A program made the position numbers and the translations under genes. A stretch of DNA of 64,000 bases from Candidatus Poribacteria bacterium (lineage in GTDB: Bacteria > Poribacteria > WGA-4E > PCPOR2b). Location of the stretch: positions 4,960,001 through 5,024,000 of the forward strand of contig OZ220744.1 of assembly GCA_965116925.1 (NCBI GenBank), written 5' to 3'. The notes under the pieces were generated by a model. It ran no database searches and was not told where the DNA came from. It worked only from the letters and a program-made list of their open reading frames with translations. Positions 40,885 to 58,593 of the stretch are shown here, piece after piece (the first letter of the stretch is position 1; every line of letters begins with the position of its first letter).

Positions 40885-41889
40885 TTAAGGGATGCGAGGG
40901 ATTGGATAGCTACCAATCCCCCGGTGATGGTGTAAGTTAGACTTAATCTCCCCCCAACGCGTTGGAACCAGTCCCTGCGGTGCAACCGGCAACCGTGGAT
41001 CCCATTCGTGAGGAGCAAAATCGGTAGCAGGACTATCCGTCAATTGTATCAACTCGTGTGTATCGAGCCGGAAACGGTAAATATCCCAATTCCCAATTTT
41101 ACCCGTTATAATGATAGATTTTCCGTCCGCGCCCCACCCGTGACCATCGGCAGCCAATAGGCGACCGGGAGGCAAAACCACCGGCTCAAACTTAATCACT
41201 TCACGATTTGACAAATGAAGTGTCGCAATGACCATAGAATACTCAAAAGCGACATCAGCAGCAAGTGGTTTCGTGATGACCGTATACAGAATCTTTTTCC
41301 CATCCGGCGACCACCCGCCCAGACGCATCGTCGAGCGGGGTACCGTTTTTGACACCTGCCATCGGTTCGTGCCATCTGCATCAATAACAAAGACCTCCCG
41401 GTTCCCGCCTAGAACCCCCTCAAAGGCAATCCGTTCGCCATCGGGTGACCACCTCAGTTTTGCGATAAATTCCGCCTGCGTTACCAACCGGAGGTTATTT
41501 CCATCCAGGTCCATTGTATAAATGCTAGTAATATCCGCACCATCTCGTCCACTACGAAACGCAATTCGTGTTCCGTCGGGGTACCAGTGGGGATAAGCAT
41601 CCAAAGCGAGATGATGGGTCAATCTCCGTTGATTGCTCCCATCGGCATCCATTACATAGACCTCCCAGTTTCCATCCCGATTGCTATCGAACGCAATCTG
41701 TTGACCGTTGGGAGACCAGGTAGGCCAACCATCGCCACCTTCATTGAACGTGAGCCAAGTTTGGTGACTACCATCTGAGTTCATCGTGTAGATTTGAGCG
41801 TTTCCATCCCGCTTAGAATAAAATACAATTTTGCCCCAAAGGGGACTCGTGGCAAGCCATAAGCAAGCCACGAGAGTGAATAGTCTCAA
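40885..41889 (-). CDS. TolB-like PD40 beta-propeller with a C-terminal V.P....T.WG.IK motif
   Basis: WSPNGQQIAF, WYPDGTRIAF and WSPDG repeats; signal peptide; PVAPQGLVPTRWGEIK; GGAGG RBS. Confidence 0.88.
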   Translation of the reverse strand: MRLFTLVACLWLATSPLWGKIVFYSKRDGNAQIYTMNSDGSHQTWLTFNEGGDGWPTWSPNGQQIAFDSNRDGNWEVYVMDADGSNQRRLTHHLALDAYPHWYPDGTRIAFRSGRDGADITSIYTMDLDGNNLRLVTQAEFIAKLRWSPDGERIAFEGVLGGNREVFVIDADGTNRWQVSKTVPRSTMRLGGWSPDGKKILYTVITKPLAADVAFEYSMVIATLHLSNREVIKFEPVVLPPGRLLAADGHGWGADGKSIIITGKIGNWDIYRFRLDTHELIQLTDSPATDFAPHEWDPRLPVAPQGLVPTRWGEIKSNLHHHRGIGSYPIPRIP

Positions 41890-50513: not shown

Positions 50514-50996
50514 TCACCTCCGGCTTTTTGATTTAATCTGTCCCCACAGAGTGAGACGTTTTTCTTTCGGTTCAACTGCCACTGTCATTTCAATTGGATA
50601 GCCCGCGTCCCGCCATCCAGGAAACCCGCCTAGGAGCACCTTTATTCGCTCCGGGGGAAACCCAAACTCGTCTATTAACATTTGTGCCGCACCGGCACTT
50701 GTGGCTTCCGCCGGTCAGCTTCAGTATAAAACAATTAACCCTTCGGCGGGAAGTGTTTGGTGTCTCGTTTCAATCCCATCCGGAAATGGCATTGAGATGG
50801 CTCCGGGAATGTGTCCGAAGTTGAAATGAATCTGGCCACGCACATCAACCAGAGTTACCTTCTCTTTGGCATCTAATAGACGCTTAAGTTCTTTCGCGTC
50901 AATCCGCTCCGCTTGAGCGGCAAATACCTGAACGAGTAATTGCTGCTGAAGGAACAACACAATTATCCAAACAACGACTCTATTCAATCTTTGCAT
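50514..50996 (-). CDS. exported rhodanese-domain protein with two in-frame UGA codons (probable Sec92 and Sec94)
   Basis: AAGGAGG-ATG at 50996; signal peptide; LVDVR, GHIPGA, IVLY-TGA-AGC-TGA-PAEATSA...LLGGFPGWRDAGYP...AVEPKEKRLTLWGQIK; 160 aa in a single frame. Confidence 0.8.
50691..50715 (-). promoter_or_regulatory. putative bacterial SECIS hairpin
   Basis: ACCGGC-GGAAGCCACAAGT-GCCGGT, starting at the last base of the second UGA. Confidence 0.5.
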
Positions 50997-51180
50997 CGGT
51001 TTGCCTCCTTGGTTGTGAATCGGTTTCAATTGTTCGCTATCCCTCACGCCACGGCGGTACTGTCCATGTATTGAACCAATTCCATTTCCACAGCACTTTC
51101 TTTGCCGGCATTTCCAATTCGTACTTGATACCAGCGGTAAAGGGTAGCAGCTTGGTTCTGTTGCCTACGGTTTCACGGAT

Positions 51181-51519
51181 CTATTCGATGAAGCTTAAGA
51201 CATCGGTGTTCTTGTGGATGGCAACGGATTTCCCGAAATTGTCGCCAGCCTCAGCATCATCAGCGGTGAGTTTTGCCTGCTGTATCCATGCCCTTCTATC
51301 ACGCACGAATATGCACGCAGATCCCGCCTTTTCTCCGCCCATATGAGTGTCAAGATGTGCGTCGACGATAGCAATGCCCTCACTGATGGAGACAGAAAAT
51401 GCAAACCATTCACCCTGCTGTCTATCGTCCGGTACAATTTCGACTTCGGCGGCGTAGATAATAGCCACCGTTCCGGTTCCTAAAATCAGACAAACCATAC
51501 AAATAGGTAAGGTTTTCAT
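51181..51519 (-). pseudogene. truncated FG-GAP-repeat secreted protein
   Basis: Signal peptide, F.FSVSIS, AGSA.IF, WIQQAKLTADD...GDNFG.SVAI; stops after about 1.5 repeats. Confidence 0.6.
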
Positions 51520-51816
51520 CGAGAACTCCTTTTAATGTAGGTGCCCATTGGGTTCAAGCACATTTTTGCAACCGGTGCTGTCAGTAATCAAAATATATCA
51601 TATCACGGTCTTAACTCCCTTTTCAAGGGTATATTTCGGCGGCAGTAAAGGCTCGGAACTACTCGCTGTGATGGTTGAGCACTAGGGTTAATTGGTTGAT
51701 GCGGTTTTCAATCGACAGTGCGGACCAACTGTTTTACGAACAGGAGCGTGGAAGGTAACACCGTTCCTAAAAGGGGATAAAGGAAAAATTGGAGTTATTT
51801 GGAATGAAGGACTTTG

Positions 51817-53241
51817 TTAATCATTTTCCGCCCCTATCTTTGCCGCAACAGTATATGCCCACCAAGGTCCCGAACTTCGACCAAGAAACGTAGCCCAATA
51901 CCATGCAGAGACATCGCTCCAACACTTGCCATCAGCATCGACAATTTGCTCGTAAACACGAAGGGTTTGATCCGAACGCCGTGCCCGGAAGCTGCCCCAA
52001 TGTGAATCATCAGCATCAATGTACATTGGGGCAGGTTCAATTGTGTAACCGATACCACGAAAACAGTCCGAGGCGGGATGGAGTTTCCGCGTCGCTTGCG
52101 TTACCCACCGTATCACTATTTCACGCTCACCGTTGGTGAAACGTCCTAACATGCCCGGAAATCCTTTGCCAAATGCTTGTTCTCTATCCGATAACGGCAA
52201 GGGTTGTATCGGCTGATTGTTAAATGTTTTCGGCCAGCCGGGAAACTGTGTTAGGTCATACACTGTATGCTTTGCAGGGGTAATTGCCGGCATTAAAGCG
52301 GCAAGGCTGCAGAGAATGACAAATACAACACGCGATGCCTGACGCGTGAAGCGTGAGATGTGGAACGTAAAATATGTCTGTCGTATTTTGCTGATTCGTC
52401 TCTCCGTCCATTCATCGATTTCTGTTCTTTCTCGAATACACTGAAGACTATACACGATCGCTGCTGCCGTGAACGCGAAAACAACCAGACCGATACCGCT
52501 GTGCCACCATGAAGGGGTCTCCAGAATTTCCGCTTCAATATAGAACAGGCTTGATGCTCTCAATACATTGCCGAGCAAGACAGCGATTATACCAATCGCG
52601 ACCGATGCCGTAAGCCTTAGCCATCCGAAACCGTAATAGGCTGCAAGGGTAAATGTCACAAACAGACCTGCCCACAGCATTCGTACGCCGCTGCATGGCG
52701 CATCGTATTGTATCATCTGGTCATTCCACACGAGCGCGGTGCCCGTTTGATCAACGGCAAGGCCGCCGAGCTTGAGAATCGGTACAGTCAACTTACCAGC
52801 GATAACTCGCGCCGGATAACCCAGATAGAATTGCATGGTAGAAGCAACTGGCAAAGCCAGCAGAAAGAGTGCCCATACAGACAACTGTGGCAATCGCCCG
52901 AAATACAAGAGATGCAGCGTCGTTCCTAAAGCGGTCACAGCGAAGGCTGCACGAATCAGCGGTGGAACAAAAGGATACAAACACACGTAGAGACCAACAA
53001 ACAGAATGACGGGTATTAAAGGGAGGTACGCCCTTTGCGGTATTCTCGGCTGCGTACACAGTAAGGCAGATGCAGTGATGAGAATCAGGAGGCCGAATAG
53101 GTCCGCTGGCGATTCCCACACACGATTCACATACCATGTCCATACGCGCCAGAATGCAATAATCTGCAAGGCGATTACGCCGATATGCCAGATGATGACC
53201 GTGCGCTGACGTGATGATTTTGGTGTCGAAGTGTGAACCAT
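51817..53241 (-). CDS. exosortase/archaeosortase-family transpeptidase (XrtQ-like) fused to a C-terminal soluble domain; start uncertain
   Basis: Multi-TM; PCSG, GNVLR and WWH (Cys-Arg-His triad); C-terminal TRKLHPASDCFRG.GY domain. Confidence 0.82.
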   Translation of the reverse strand: MVHTSTPKSSRQRTVIIWHIGVIALQIIAFWRVWTWYVNRVWESPADLFGLLILITASALLCTQPRIPQRAYLPLIPVILFVGLYVCLYPFVPPLIRAAFAVTALGTTLHLLYFGRLPQLSVWALFLLALPVASTMQFYLGYPARVIAGKLTVPILKLGGLAVDQTGTALVWNDQMIQYDAPCSGVRMLWAGLFVTFTLAAYYGFGWLRLTASVAIGIIAVLLGNVLRASSLFYIEAEILETPSWWHSGIGLVVFAFTAAAIVYSLQCIRERTEIDEWTERRISKIRQTYFTFHISRFTRQASRVVFVILCSLAALMPAITPAKHTVYDLTQFPGWPKTFNNQPIQPLPLSDREQAFGKGFPGMLGRFTNGEREIVIRWVTQATRKLHPASDCFRGIGYTIEPAPMYIDADDSHWGSFRARRSDQTLRVYEQIVDADGKCWSDVSAWYWATFLGRSSGPWWAYTVAAKIGAEND

Positions 53242-55649
53242 ATGATAAACAAAAGTGCAATTAGTAATAGTGCCCATACTTCGGGCTCAGGGATAGTTGG
53301 AACACTGTCTCGATCCACAGGAGTGAGCGAATTCGCCTCGTATTGCTGCGCGGTTTCCAAAACAACGGCGCCGCTGACCGGGGTGATAATATGATACCTC
53401 GAAGCAAGCTGGATTGCCTCCGACCGATTGCCTGCTGCATCTGTGCCGAGCGTGTGGAGAACTTCTTCTTTCGCCCACAGTGGTGTGATGTGATGTGAAC
53501 GCGGGTTGCTGGATAGCTCTTGGTCTACCTCGTATACTGGAATCCGCTTTCGTTTAATCTCAAATGTCGCCTGTTTTCCGTCTATCTTCTCAAAATATCG
53601 GTGTAGATCTGCTTTGATATCGCCAAGCCGAGGGATCACAGTCGCCTCCATTGCCCACTCCGCTTGATCCAAGAGACGGTTTGGACCGGCGGCTACAGAT
53701 AGAAGCGCAATGTCAGGGAATCTAACGAGACGCGCTATCGCTTGATCGAGCGTCGCATGGGTATTTTCAAAAGGCACGGGTTGAGGCCCATGAATCCATA
53801 ACAGCGTCCCCGGATCATAAGCTTCAAGAATCTGCATCGCAGATGCCAGGCCTGGCGCGTTGTTTTGTCCGCCGACCAGCCTGTACTTTCTCAGCATCTC
53901 GACAATTCTCCGCTTTTGATTTTCGTTCCAAGCTGACGGCTGAATCTGAGCCAGCGTGTCCGAAGCAATAATGAACCCGACTTCCACACCGCTGGGAATC
54001 GCGTTTAACCCCTCAATAATATCTTGAACCGATGGCTTGACCAGTGCTGAACCATCGAGCACGATGACTAAACCATCCGGTACTTCAGGCGTAGTCTCTG
54101 CTATCGTCTGGACAATTGCAAACCCTCCCTCATCCACCGAATCGAGTGTCCACGTTGTGTTGATGCTTGCATCACGAGCAACCGTAATGAATGCACTGGG
54201 CGAAGCAAGATCTTTGTCTCTGACCTCTCTGCTTAGACGATAGTGGTTGTGTGCGACGCGGCGGCTGTGCAAAGCGAGTCGAGTGCTTGTCTCCAGGGGT
54301 TGCTTCCCCTCGATCCAAAGGGTATGCCGAAAATCGTCTCTGAGATTGAAGTTCTGACTAACGAAAGTCGGCAAAACTAATCGTCCCTCATCAAGGTTTG
54401 CAAGATCAAGAGGTGCCGTTATGCCGATACGGTAGCGAAGTGTGCCGCCGTTGGGAGGCACAGGAAACGCTTGCGCGAGAATCCGCTCAGGTCCCTGCGT
54501 TGTCACTAGCAACGGATCCTGTCTTTTCATGACAACGCTTTCGTAGGCACGACGGACCTGTGCTCTGCCAGCAAACGCCGCTTCACGTTCCTCACCGTTC
54601 ACCCAGAGTGTGGCGCGTGAAACGACAGCGCCGGGCGGCAAGACAATCTGTGCGCGTGCCTCATGAGCCCGCGTTGCATTATTGCGAAACGTCATCGTCC
54701 ATTCGAGGTAGGCAAGGGCGCTATCGCCATCAACGGAACCATCAATGCGAGAAGATAGTAAATACAAGTCTCGGAGGCGGCTGCCAACTTGCGTGCCGCC
54801 TTGATTCAGGTCAAATTGAAAATCATTCAATATCTGCCAGGTGCCCCCAGCGTAGGGGGAGGGTCGTGAATTGAAGGGCTCACCTGTCACGCGGTAAAAA
54901 ACTTCACGTATCTTCGGCGTTGGGATATGTCTTCCGTTGATGTTAAGAAGCGAGGCAATGAGGCTCCAAGGCCCGCCTGCCAGACCCGTACGACTATAAC
55001 AGTAGCGTAGTAAGGCATCTTCGTCGCCAAACCTACGTAATAACTGAACGCCTCGTCTGTTGACTTCTGCTGAGGGTGCTGTCGCCCATCGGATGCCTGT
55101 TTTTGTAATTATCGTGGGTAACTCCAAGAGAATCAGCATACCAAATGCCACAGCAAGCCCTTTCCATAAGGGTGATTTCTGAGGTTCGATCTTTGTACGT
55201 TCTCGTTTACGCAACTGCTTGTATAGAAGACTTGCAGTAGTAAGCGAGACGAGCGGCGCCAGCGGAAGCAAACCGATACCGTAAAACACCACAGCGAACA
55301 CCGCCATTGGAAATATTGGCAAAAAGAGAAGCGTGTAAAATGCGGCGACACCAATAGCAGTTGCACCAAGAAATGCTAACAGCCGTGTGTGTTGGTTCAA
55401 TGCCCCACTTAATCTCCACCAGATGAAGCCATTTGCCGCCGGCACCAAACTCACTAACAGCACATGCCAGATCGTCGGGATTGGATTGAATAAAATTTTC
55501 GCACACATACGGGTCACCAGTTCAAATCCGATGACGCCTGCGGGGTAGAACACTCCTAGTAGGAGCATAGCCACGCTTGATTTTTTATTAGCGTTCGTTT
55601 TTTGATGGTTCTCTGTCTTTGAATTGCTTAATTGGTTTTGATTGGGCAT
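53175..55649 (-). CDS. membrane-anchored VIT-domain protein with a PEP-CTERM sorting signal
   Basis: N-terminal TMs; EAR.QI.LPPGAVVSRATLWVNGEEREA and DPLLV; C-terminal VPTIPEP + TM + basic residues. Confidence 0.85.
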   Translation of the reverse strand: MPNQNQLSNSKTENHQKTNANKKSSVAMLLLGVFYPAGVIGFELVTRMCAKILFNPIPTIWHVLLVSLVPAANGFIWWRLSGALNQHTRLLAFLGATAIGVAAFYTLLFLPIFPMAVFAVVFYGIGLLPLAPLVSLTTASLLYKQLRKRERTKIEPQKSPLWKGLAVAFGMLILLELPTIITKTGIRWATAPSAEVNRRGVQLLRRFGDEDALLRYCYSRTGLAGGPWSLIASLLNINGRHIPTPKIREVFYRVTGEPFNSRPSPYAGGTWQILNDFQFDLNQGGTQVGSRLRDLYLLSSRIDGSVDGDSALAYLEWTMTFRNNATRAHEARAQIVLPPGAVVSRATLWVNGEEREAAFAGRAQVRRAYESVVMKRQDPLLVTTQGPERILAQAFPVPPNGGTLRYRIGITAPLDLANLDEGRLVLPTFVSQNFNLRDDFRHTLWIEGKQPLETSTRLALHSRRVAHNHYRLSREVRDKDLASPSAFITVARDASINTTWTLDSVDEGGFAIVQTIAETTPEVPDGLVIVLDGSALVKPSVQDIIEGLNAIPSGVEVGFIIASDTLAQIQPSAWNENQKRRIVEMLRKYRLVGGQNNAPGLASAMQILEAYDPGTLLWIHGPQPVPFENTHATLDQAIARLVRFPDIALLSVAAGPNRLLDQAEWAMEATVIPRLGDIKADLHRYFEKIDGKQATFEIKRKRIPVYEVDQELSSNPRSHHITPLWAKEEVLHTLGTDAAGNRSEAIQLASRYHIITPVSGAVVLETAQQYEANSLTPVDRDSVPTIPEPEVWALLLIALLFIIWFTLRHQNHHVSARSSSGISA

Positions 55650-56336: not shown

Positions 56337-58028
56337 CTAATCGAACTGCGTCATCTCAACAGCGAACCACAATGCCAAACTCCCTGTGCGGTCATCATAG
56401 CCGCTCAGTGCCTCTCGAACGATGTAATCCTGTTCCGTCTCTAATGCGCCTGTCCCTGTGCAGCCGTCAACCACATCGCCTGTTTCAGTAATCCTCGTTT
56501 TAGCCCCATTCCATAGGGATGATAGGGTTGGGAGATAGGATTGATCCAACACCCCCAATTTAATCCCTCTGGCAACCCCGTAACCGATCATGCAGGTGCT
56601 TGTCATTTCTTGATAACTACCCGGTAGGGTGATAACTTGATGGTAGCAACCCGATGGATCCTGATATTTTAACAACCCGTTCAACAATTTCTGATACATC
56701 AAAAGTATATCGGCGTATAGGGGATGAGATTGCGGCAGATAGGTCAATGCCTCTGCAAGCCCTAAAGCAGCGAACCCATTGCCCCTGCCCCAGTAAAAAG
56801 GGGTTTCTCTATCATGCCAATACAGTCCTGAAATCTGTTGTGTGCCCATTTCGACGAGGAAATTGGTCAGGAGGTCTAGATATTGCCCTTCTTGGGTCAG
56901 CGCATAGCTCCTCCCCATCATCGACCCAAGCATGAACATATCCTCCGTCCTCCATTTCGGATCTGCTGGAGCAGGGGGATTTGATCCGCTTAAATCAAAC
57001 CGATTTGCCAAATCTAAGAGGTAATTTTTATATCTTGGATCTTTGGTCACTCGGAACAGATCATCTGCCCATACCACTCCAGCAAGCGAGGCAGAACCGG
57101 GGGCATCGCCAAAACTGGTGGAAGGATCATCAACATAAGGATCGACCAACTGAAAAATATCATCGGGCACGTCTTGATTCATATGTTCCGCCAATCGAAT
57201 CCTGCCACTCACACCGACACCTTGAATGTAGTTGATCGGGGAATCTAGCTTATACCCAAACTGCGAGGCTAATACCTCACTCACCTCTTGTGCAGTTCGA
57301 TCCCTCCGTTTGCGGATTGCGGCTGCGGCAAGACTCGATGAAGATTGATCTGTGCCCCCAGAATCTATCACTTTGTGTAATAACTCAACTGTCTTTGATG
57401 CAACTTGCTCACTTGTTCCCACAATCCGGACTCCCGGTATCGATCCCAGATTGGATTCATGTTTCCGTCCCAGTGCTCCAATTAGACTGTCGTCGGAGAT
57501 AGGACTCGCTGCATCCACATCAGCCATAAAATCGGGAGCAGCCTCATTGGATTCAATCCTAGTTGATTCTCCAAGGGATAACTCAATCACTAAATCGGGA
57601 GCTTGGTAGGACACCCACCGCCAGATGTACCTACTCTCTGGTACTTCTGAATCAAAGAAGTAGTTTCCGTCGGGTGGGAATCCGTGCGTTAATTTTCCTT
57701 GAACTTCAGAGGTTTGTGAATTACCTATATATGTGTCATAGTCCAGACAGGGAATGTAGCTGATTGAAAGCGCGTTGAAACCATTGTAATGATTCGTAAC
57801 TGTGTCAATTACATTAAGGGCTAACTGAACATCAGCATCCCTCCCATTGCCCCCTCCGATAACCAGTATTCGGGTACAATCCCCAGAGAAATCGTAGGCA
57901 CTCTTATCAAGAAGGACGGGGATTTGGCAGCCATTTTTAGTTATCCCGCAATAGCTGATGTCTGAAGCAACTATCCCTTGTCGTACCAAGTTGTGTAGTG
58001 TTGATTCCAATGATTTATTTAAGGGCAT
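56337..58028 (-). CDS. glycoside hydrolase family 88/105 protein with a degenerate M14-like N-terminal domain
   Basis: EDMFM, GLYWH, WGRGNGF, GCYHQ and EMTSTCM motifs; AGGAGG RBS before ATG 58028. Confidence 0.78.
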   Translation of the reverse strand: MPLNKSLESTLHNLVRQGIVASDISYCGITKNGCQIPVLLDKSAYDFSGDCTRILVIGGGNGRDADVQLALNVIDTVTNHYNGFNALSISYIPCLDYDTYIGNSQTSEVQGKLTHGFPPDGNYFFDSEVPESRYIWRWVSYQAPDLVIELSLGESTRIESNEAAPDFMADVDAASPISDDSLIGALGRKHESNLGSIPGVRIVGTSEQVASKTVELLHKVIDSGGTDQSSSSLAAAAIRKRRDRTAQEVSEVLASQFGYKLDSPINYIQGVGVSGRIRLAEHMNQDVPDDIFQLVDPYVDDPSTSFGDAPGSASLAGVVWADDLFRVTKDPRYKNYLLDLANRFDLSGSNPPAPADPKWRTEDMFMLGSMMGRSYALTQEGQYLDLLTNFLVEMGTQQISGLYWHDRETPFYWGRGNGFAALGLAEALTYLPQSHPLYADILLMYQKLLNGLLKYQDPSGCYHQVITLPGSYQEMTSTCMIGYGVARGIKLGVLDQSYLPTLSSLWNGAKTRITETGDVVDGCTGTGALETEQDYIVREALSGYDDRTGSLALWFAVEMTQFD

Positions 58029-58059
58029 ATAACCTCCTAAGAGGATGTTTTGAAAAGTG

Positions 58060-58593
58060 CTATGTCTTCTCGGTGCACTCACCTGACGCTGCGAGTTGCA
58101 GAATACGCTCAACAAATGGAGATTTTTCGTCCTGATATGCTTGTCGGTTGGTCGGGAACTGTTGAGCCAGTTTCAATTTGAGTTTGGCGTATTCTTCAGC
58201 TAACTCTGAATGCTGGATGAGATAATCTCTAAAGAGCAGCATATTTCTCCATCTATAACTATGCACCTCTAACATATGTATGTGATGGGTCCTCGGACTA
58301 CCTTTGACGAAATAATGTCGTCGGGGTATCCCGTATTCACCTCTATATTCATAGCCGAACTTCTCAATTGGTTTTATACAAATCGTAGCTTCCTCAAAAT
58401 TATGGATGGCTATACCTATGTCTAAGATCGGTTTTGCTGCCATCGTTGGAATAGAAGTGCTGCCTACATGCTGAATGTCCAAAACATAATTGCCAACAGC
58501 AGCTTGCAGCCGAGCTTTCTCTTGATTAAAAAGGTTTTTCCATTCCGACGTATAGGGAACAATTTTGATAACGCCTGCTTGTAAGCCGATCAT
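58060..58593 (-). CDS. GrpB/UPF0157 nucleotidyltransferase-like protein
   Basis: HVGSTSI..M.AKPILDI, FRDYL, Y..LK..LA and Y...K motifs. Confidence 0.92.
   Translation of the reverse strand: MIGLQAGVIKIVPYTSEWKNLFNQEKARLQAAVGNYVLDIQHVGSTSIPTMAAKPILDIGIAIHNFEEATICIKPIEKFGYEYRGEYGIPRRHYFVKGSPRTHHIHMLEVHSYRWRNMLLFRDYLIQHSELAEEYAKLKLKLAQQFPTNRQAYQDEKSPFVERILQLAASGECTEKT

Follow-up and report, generated by a model that had tools for sequence, protein, structure and literature searches.

A rhodanese gene with two in-frame TGA codons

The minus strand of the 64,000-nt stretch of a Poribacteria genome analysed here (the window) carries an intact rhodanese gene of 160 residues. Its active-site loop reads Y-TGA-AGC-TGA-P, and the minus-strand translation runs through IVLY, a first TGA, a single Ser, a second TGA and PAEATSAG. 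The positions of the gene and of the features discussed below are collected in Table 1. An earlier inspection of the letters of this DNA (the sequence-only reading) had stated that the frame continues for 66 sense codons past the second TGA and that the gene has a strong ribosome-binding site. The translation agrees on the first point and ends in a TGA codon, and the ribosome-binding site is in place. Its AGGA core was also found upstream in 19 of the 20 orthologue loci displayed, the twentieth locus being out of register. Most close homologues in public records end at residue 91, and two others (P0110 and P0139) come from records translated with TGA as Trp. The full-length reading therefore corrects a routine mis-annotation, the 91-residue fragment. 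A promoter and terminator scan at the locus gave no signal beyond chance level. Among the contigs of the four runs examined out of 17 listed, RNA run X1 yielded a 9.3-kb contig that matches the locus and is possibly DNA, and run X5 yielded a 421-nt contig that spans both TGA codons with 17 differences from the gene.

Table 1 Features of the rhodanese gene and its surroundings (positions in the window)
Feature	Position	Strand	Evidence
Ribosome-binding site AAGGAGG, 7 nt 5' of the ATG	51004..51010	minus	Sequence; AGGA core in relatives
Complete gene, 160 codons and TGA stop; rhodanese with putative U92-S93-U94, predicted exported	50514..50996	minus	
Predicted signal peptide, residues 1-26, with basic N-terminus, hydrophobic helix and V-F-A ahead of the probable cleavage site	50919..50996	minus	Sequence, alignment
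Rhodanese domain, residues 34-130 (PF00581, E 2e-14)	50607..50897	minus	Pfam, AlphaFold2 model, Foldseek
UGA1, codon 92, position of the rhodanese catalytic Cys	50721..50723	minus	Aligned with the loop Cys of solved rhodanese-like structures, e.g. 3nhv
UGA2, codon 94, position of the Sec of the CxU family	50715..50717	minus	TGA in 48/48; Cys in CxC homologues L108-L110, P0083, P0085-P0087
3-bp hairpin with GGAA loop, confined to Poribacteria genes	50703..50712	minus	Covarying outer pair
Conserved putative SECIS: 5-bp stem, 5-nt loop, invariant G at 50692	50684..50698	minus	RNAalifold, covariation, metagenome set
V-x-P-K-x-K-x3-L-W-G-x-I-K tag, residues 141-155	50532..50576	minus	Motif counts

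Selenocysteine machinery and meaning of UGA in the genome

All four genes that the sequence-only reading had proposed to look for, selA, selB, selC and selD, are present in the genome. selA (E 1e-159), selB (373 bits) and tRNA-Sec (76.6 bits) are clustered within 3.4 kb of this single-contig genome, and the selD gene itself contains an in-frame TGA. Across the phylum selB scored above the cut-off in 167 of 176 genomes. All 39 UxU genomes are among them, and so are 46 of the 47 holders of the rhodanese gene; the remaining holder (G057) is 80% complete and carries a CxU gene. Because selB is so widespread, its co-occurrence with the gene is consistent with selenocysteine insertion but does not discriminate. 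TGA terminates 674 of the 2255 long ORFs genome-wide, as well as the rhodanese gene itself, which indicates, in agreement with the sequence-only reading, that UGA is not globally reassigned, and the sole tRNA with a UCA anticodon is tRNA-Sec. The idea that the gene is a pseudogene, an assembly error or a product of global UGA reassignment, which could draw on the truncated and Trp-translated public records, is refuted by this use of TGA as a stop and by intact frames in 39 genomes with conserved ribosome-binding site and C-terminal tag.

Codon states among the orthologues

Searching the 176 genomes of the phylum returned 48 matches in 47 genomes at E ≤ 1e-21, with identities of 39-91%, the next-best matches being other rhodaneses at 1e-14 or weaker. 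Two weaker matches (L076 and L077) were kept in the tree and left out of the counts. The second TGA was found in all 48 orthologues and the first in 39, the other nine having TGT or TGC at that position, so that 39 genes read U-S-U, nine read C-x-U and none reads C-x-C or U-x-C. Neither TAA, TAG nor TGG occurs at codon 92. Columns 92 and 94 thus contain no codon other than TGA or one for Cys in any of the 48 orthologues, and the double TGA is confined neither to one assembly nor to decaying copies, since the 39 intact genes are spread over five family-level groups; both were points on which the earlier proposal could have failed. These phylum counts draw on related genomes and are not independent. 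One family (f3) is entirely CxU, with the gene in six of seven genomes, another (f2) is entirely UxU (11 of 11), and the largest family (f4) gave no orthologue in 112 genomes with the queries used. The tree implies three to four changes at codon 92, at least two of them forced by well-supported branches; it is unrooted and carries no direction of change. One genome (G058) holds two CxU paralogues, L069 and L070.

CxC relatives exist outside the phylum (for example those listed in Table 1 for codon 94). A contig scan restricted to Cys codons, and therefore blind to UGA forms, recovered three CxC genes, and a profile search returned mainly multi-domain rhodaneses. The close homologue P0170 reads Y-C-S-R-P, with Arg in the second Sec position, which reflects either loss or a sequencing error.

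Synonymous sites are near-frozen at codons 93-104 (AGC in 46/46 Ser, GAA in 48/48, GCG in 46/46), while conserved residues elsewhere in the gene mostly show mixed codon use. TAC encodes Tyr91 in 38 of 39 UxU genes, against four of nine in the CxU set and 38 of 78 among the other Tyr codons; we take this bias as a sign of selection on the context of UGA1. The sequence-only reading had called the protein a probable double selenoprotein in which codon 92 stands at the catalytic Cys. This codon does align with the loop Cys of 3nhv and similar structures, and the machinery, the Cys/TGA columns and the recurrence of the pair in intact genes all agree with that proposal. From these sequence data we infer, with high confidence, that Sec is inserted at both sites.

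One conserved hairpin, probably serving both UGA codons

RNAalifold predicted a single helix, 17-31 nt past UGA2. All 190 cells of its stem (38 distinct rows) are paired, two of the pairs show compensatory changes, and none of 500 shuffles scored as high on pairing and covariation. The hairpin that had been put forward as the SECIS, ACCGGC...GCCGGT, exists in the sequence but is not conserved, with 70.6% of cells paired and 394 of 500 shuffles scoring as high; it was rejected, the conserved SECIS being a different, overlapping hairpin. The available text of a 2026 review (PMC13188914) describes a bacterial SECIS as having a loop of 3-9 nt, a stem of 4-16 bp, a G in the first two loop positions, a spacing of 16-37 nt and an MFE of at most -7.5. 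The conserved hairpin (-9.5 kcal/mol over 19 nt) fits this description for both codons, with five loop nucleotides, five base pairs, G as the second loop base and a loop that lies 27 nt from UGA1 and 21 nt from UGA2. Since the codon that bears the loop G encodes Arg, Gly, Ser or Trp, depending on the gene, it is the base that is constrained and not the residue. This G stands at +23 after UGA2 and +29 after UGA1. In eight other candidate selenoprotein genes of the genome it lies at +18 to +22, and thus the spacing to UGA1 is outside the local range but inside the published one. A loose genome-wide scan for the SECIS motif was unspecific.

A second hairpin in the register of UGA1 was found in none of the 39 Poribacteria UxU genes, which makes it probable that the two codons share one SECIS; in the metagenome set, a loose hairpin test, run with no chance control, gave an alternative for 32 of the 114 UxU loci among the matches listed. 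The small GGAA-loop hairpin at +3 to +12 was considered as a device that shortens the distance to UGA1. It is present in 35 of 39 UxU versus one of nine CxU Poribacteria genes, but kinship and the A-E-A codons confound this association, and the hairpin occurs in only four of the 114 other UxU loci among the matches listed. We rejected it as a general mechanism.

An unlikely alternative is that Sec is efficiently inserted at UGA2 only. UGA1 would then act mostly as a stop, or be weakly read as Cys or Trp, and so keep the level of full-length protein low or make it depend on the supply of selenium. This would suit the position of the hairpin, which is the usual one with respect to UGA2 but exceeds the local range by 7 nt with respect to UGA1, as well as the swaps between UGA1 and Cys on the tree (at least two, most parsimoniously three to four). 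However, 27 nt falls within the spacing range given in the available text of the review (PMC13188914), UGA1 stands at the catalytic position with nothing but TGA or Cys codons and no other stop or Trp codon in the 48 orthologues, and the 91-residue product would be devoid of the catalytic loop. Shared use of one hairpin has a eukaryotic parallel in SelL, where two close UGAs are served by one SECIS according to the accessible part of PMC4989117; that SECIS lies in the 3'-UTR, whereas the Poribacteria hairpin is in-frame and tied to its distance from the codon. In the literature searched, mostly without subscription papers, we found no study of one bacterial SECIS shared by two UGAs.

Fold and family placement

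The read-through protein matches PF00581 with 54.2 bits (cut-off 22.2). An AlphaFold2 model built from a 26-sequence alignment, with Cys in place of Sec, has a pLDDT of 89-98 over residues 31-140, and the best structural matches found by Foldseek are rhodanese-like, with 3nhv at E 7e-9. GlpE, PspE and BH2092 (PDB 3nhv, 28% identity) have the same fold and the same position of the catalytic residue but carry Cys instead of Sec and have no C/U-x-C/U pair. PspE is periplasmic. SelL, by comparison, has a thioredoxin-like fold, differing from that of rhodaneses. Compared with 6mxv, the active-site loop has two extra residues, and it resembles the longer loop of 3nhv; sulfurtransferase activity is for this reason not guaranteed.

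The closest family is NF041203 (rhodanese_LYCAU), to which the protein scores 70.7 bits (E 8e-20) against a cut-off of 115. None of the 176 phylum genomes reaches this cut-off, the nearest (G007) scoring 112.9. The Y-x-x-U-P-x-E-x-x-S loop and the register of the SECIS are those of NF041203, and so is the C-x-U arrangement with Sec second, codon 94 being a predicted Sec in 48 of 48 orthologues and the first position U in 39 and C in nine. Judged by its sequence, the Poribacteria protein is a divergent relative of this known rhodanese family that falls below the curated cut-off. It differs from the family as presented in the available text of PMC13188914, where it appears as form 3, CxU, with one Sec in place of two; other bacterial proteins with two Sec are listed there. 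Among them TsoB (NF045694; table of PMC13188914, as far as available) is alike in having a rhodanese domain and two Sec, but it is rhodanese/DsbD fusion-like, with UxxxxU spacing and a 572-position model, and our single-domain protein scores 25.9 bits against its cut-off of 805.

The UxU rhodanese is not new. The accessible part of a 2007 report (PMC1976440) predicted one from sequence in Olavius algarvensis symbionts, as one new form of 'rhodanese-related sulfurtransferase' selenoprotein in a deltaproteobacterial symbiont metagenome, and the second Sec giving U-x-U is shared with the Poribacteria protein. The two presumably belong to the same family; the section on the UxU rhodanese in that report (PMC1976440) says nothing on export or on the decoding of two UGAs. 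We found no description of selenocysteine in Poribacteria in the literature searched, mostly without subscription papers. The present analysis adds a corrected SECIS, a view of how widely UxU occurs and a testable model in which one hairpin serves two codons.

Breadth of the UxU form in metagenomes

We scanned metagenomes for a pattern of two TGAs, the Pro, the Glu and four bases of the 5' stem arm, leaving the 3' arm and the loop G free; such a scan yields no UxU:CxU ratio. Among the matches listed there were 121 loci, 114 of them rhodaneses by profile. The SECIS stem was found in the same register in 112 of these 114 versus none of the seven non-rhodanese matches listed, and the loop G in 114 of 114 versus two of seven; this G is absent from the three CxC genes. 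The arrangement had been described as rare on first inspection, a view that does not hold with at least 114 UxU rhodaneses among the loci listed. An N-terminal hydrophobic stretch was present in 91 of 103 scorable loci among the matches listed. Out of 44 UxU proteins, hand-picked from the 66 near-complete ones in the first 80 loci listed, 25 score above the NF041203 cut-off, which indicates that UxU is common inside the family. By these sequence measures both UxU and predicted export are common in the rhodanese family, and the UxU form is widespread even though the review, in its available text, has the family as one-Sec CxU (PMC13188914).

A multihaem cytochrome c domain (PF13447-like) is fused to the rhodanese in 11 of 74 metagenome homologues, including L116, L119, L120, L132, L152, L153 and L159, and such fusions are possibly sulfur-redox enzymes. 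Other arrangements were also seen. L129 joins a UxU rhodanese to a cohesin-like domain (Pfam E 2e-6) and has a W-G-x-I tag at the edge of the locus, L075 of genome G008 is similar but longer, L149 is fused to an unassigned domain, and L112 and L113 are UxU genes that lie in tandem on a single metagenome contig, with about 730 nt between them.

Predicted export, C-terminal tag and neighbouring genes

The N-terminus has the basic start, hydrophobic helix and V-F-A expected of the signal peptide that had been noted earlier, and the structural model places a helix at residues 2-24. At the other end, the V.P..K...WG.IK terminus had been likened to that of another protein of the window, and a similar tag does end the protein encoded at 40885-41889. 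Genome-wide, 99 ORFs end in the W-G-x-I-K tag, whereas about 1.1 would be expected from internal matches. A heuristic search scored a signal-peptide-like start in 91 of 97 longer tagged ORFs versus 937 of 4313 other long ORFs. With its putative N-terminal signal peptide and its terminal motif, the rhodanese falls by this heuristic into the W-G-x-I-K exported class; the tag is a probable sorting signal and the protein is, we infer, exported. This would add a redox protein to the roughly 100 Poribacteria proteins with this uncharacterised tag, for which we found no described system in the literature searched, mostly without subscription papers. The Poribacteria protein differs in this respect from the 74 metagenome homologues, none of which shows the tag pattern within the stretch tested among the matches listed.

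A gene for a MerA/LpdA-like flavin disulfide reductase (NF004991, 486 bits, below the cut-off of 620) begins 12 nt downstream. No signal peptide was seen at its N-terminus. As a fixed partner of the rhodanese it was rejected, being adjacent in 11 of 48 loci, all of one genus (four loci had less than 200 nt of downstream sequence), and the flanking genes listed for the orthologues differ between lineages. Upstream, on the minus strand at 51181-55649, lie an FG-GAP fragment, an exosortase (PF09721) and a VIT-domain protein. This block looks like a recent insertion, since five close relatives have the counterpart of the gene at 56337-58115 directly upstream of the rhodanese region.

Proposed mechanism and function

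We favour, with a probability of about 0.8, a joint reading in which the gene encodes a full-length selenoprotein of 160 residues that uses one SECIS, is exported and transfers sulfane sulfur or selenium. SelB bound to the single in-frame hairpin would deliver Sec-tRNA to both UGAs, 27 and 21 nt from the loop, and the protein would leave the cytoplasm by means of its signal peptide, bearing the C-terminal tag common to about 100 exported proteins of the genome. Outside the cytoplasm the rhodanese domain would take up and pass on sulfane sulfur, or selenium, with U92 as the nucleophile that forms a selenopersulfide-type intermediate, and U94 would either resolve this intermediate or shield it as an Se-Se or Se-S bond. 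The substrate and the chemistry are the least certain part of this scheme, for which we would offer about even odds. A role as extracytoplasmic sulfur or selenium carrier is the most likely one in view of the fold, the cytochrome fusions and rhodanese chemistry in general, which is well established. The fusions to multihaem cytochrome c fit redox work outside the cytoplasm. Geobacter has been shown to reduce polysulfide by means of a periplasmic Sec enzyme, according to the accessible part of PMC13510729; it is an analogy for the Poribacteria rhodanese and not a homologue.

The main rival to the carrier role, less probable, is that the protein is a double selenoprotein whose U-x-U handles a soft metal or metalloid (As, Hg or Se oxyanions) by binding or reduction, or forms a redox diselenide, with no transfer of sulfane sulfur. 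The loop longer than that of canonical rhodaneses and the MerA/LpdA-like flavoprotein close downstream are compatible with such handling, and the fold also includes Cdc25-type proteins and the arsenate reductase Acr2. Against this, the flavoprotein is a neighbour in a single genus, the flanking genes vary between lineages, and the top profile matches are families of the sulfurtransferase type.

On a broader scale, the balance tilts slightly towards UxU being a common state of a large, mostly exported bacterial rhodanese family that is truncated in databases. One in-frame SECIS would insert two Sec two codons apart, at 21 and 27 nt, making a compact tandem-Sec cassette and a vicinal-diselenide carrier of sulfur or selenium, delivered in Poribacteria to the envelope by an undescribed C-terminal tag. 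The fixed register of the hairpin in about 150 genes offers a natural test of how strict the distance from UGA to SECIS is in bacteria, and of whether a single SECIS is able to support two insertions in a row, which is relevant for making multi-Sec proteins in the laboratory.

Other candidate selenoproteins of the genome

A coding-score screen for selenoproteins missed both selD and the UxU rhodanese, and the candidates given here are thus an incomplete list. A small DUF5069 protein (L236, G000:C1:4898526-4898801, plus strand) has an in-frame TGA. Of 57 genomes with a match, 55 have a TGA within the matched stretch. Its site is shared by the 15 that were inspected, and G013 and G014 have Cys there instead; a DUF5069 selenoprotein was found neither in the available text of PMC13188914 nor in the other literature searched. 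A MetE-like protein (PF01717; L237, G000:C1:6017152-6018267, plus strand) adjoining selD has a TGA in the motif H-L-x-R-G-N, seen in seven of seven matched genomes, all of one genus, among the 61 genomes searched. Further candidate TGA codons lie on G000:C1 at 150426 (minus), 996697 (plus), 2541663 (minus), 3775202 (plus) and 4721121 (minus), in genes for a DUF3179 protein, two AhpC/TSA-domain proteins, a thioredoxin-TPR protein and what we take, by its motif, to be a formate dehydrogenase alpha subunit.
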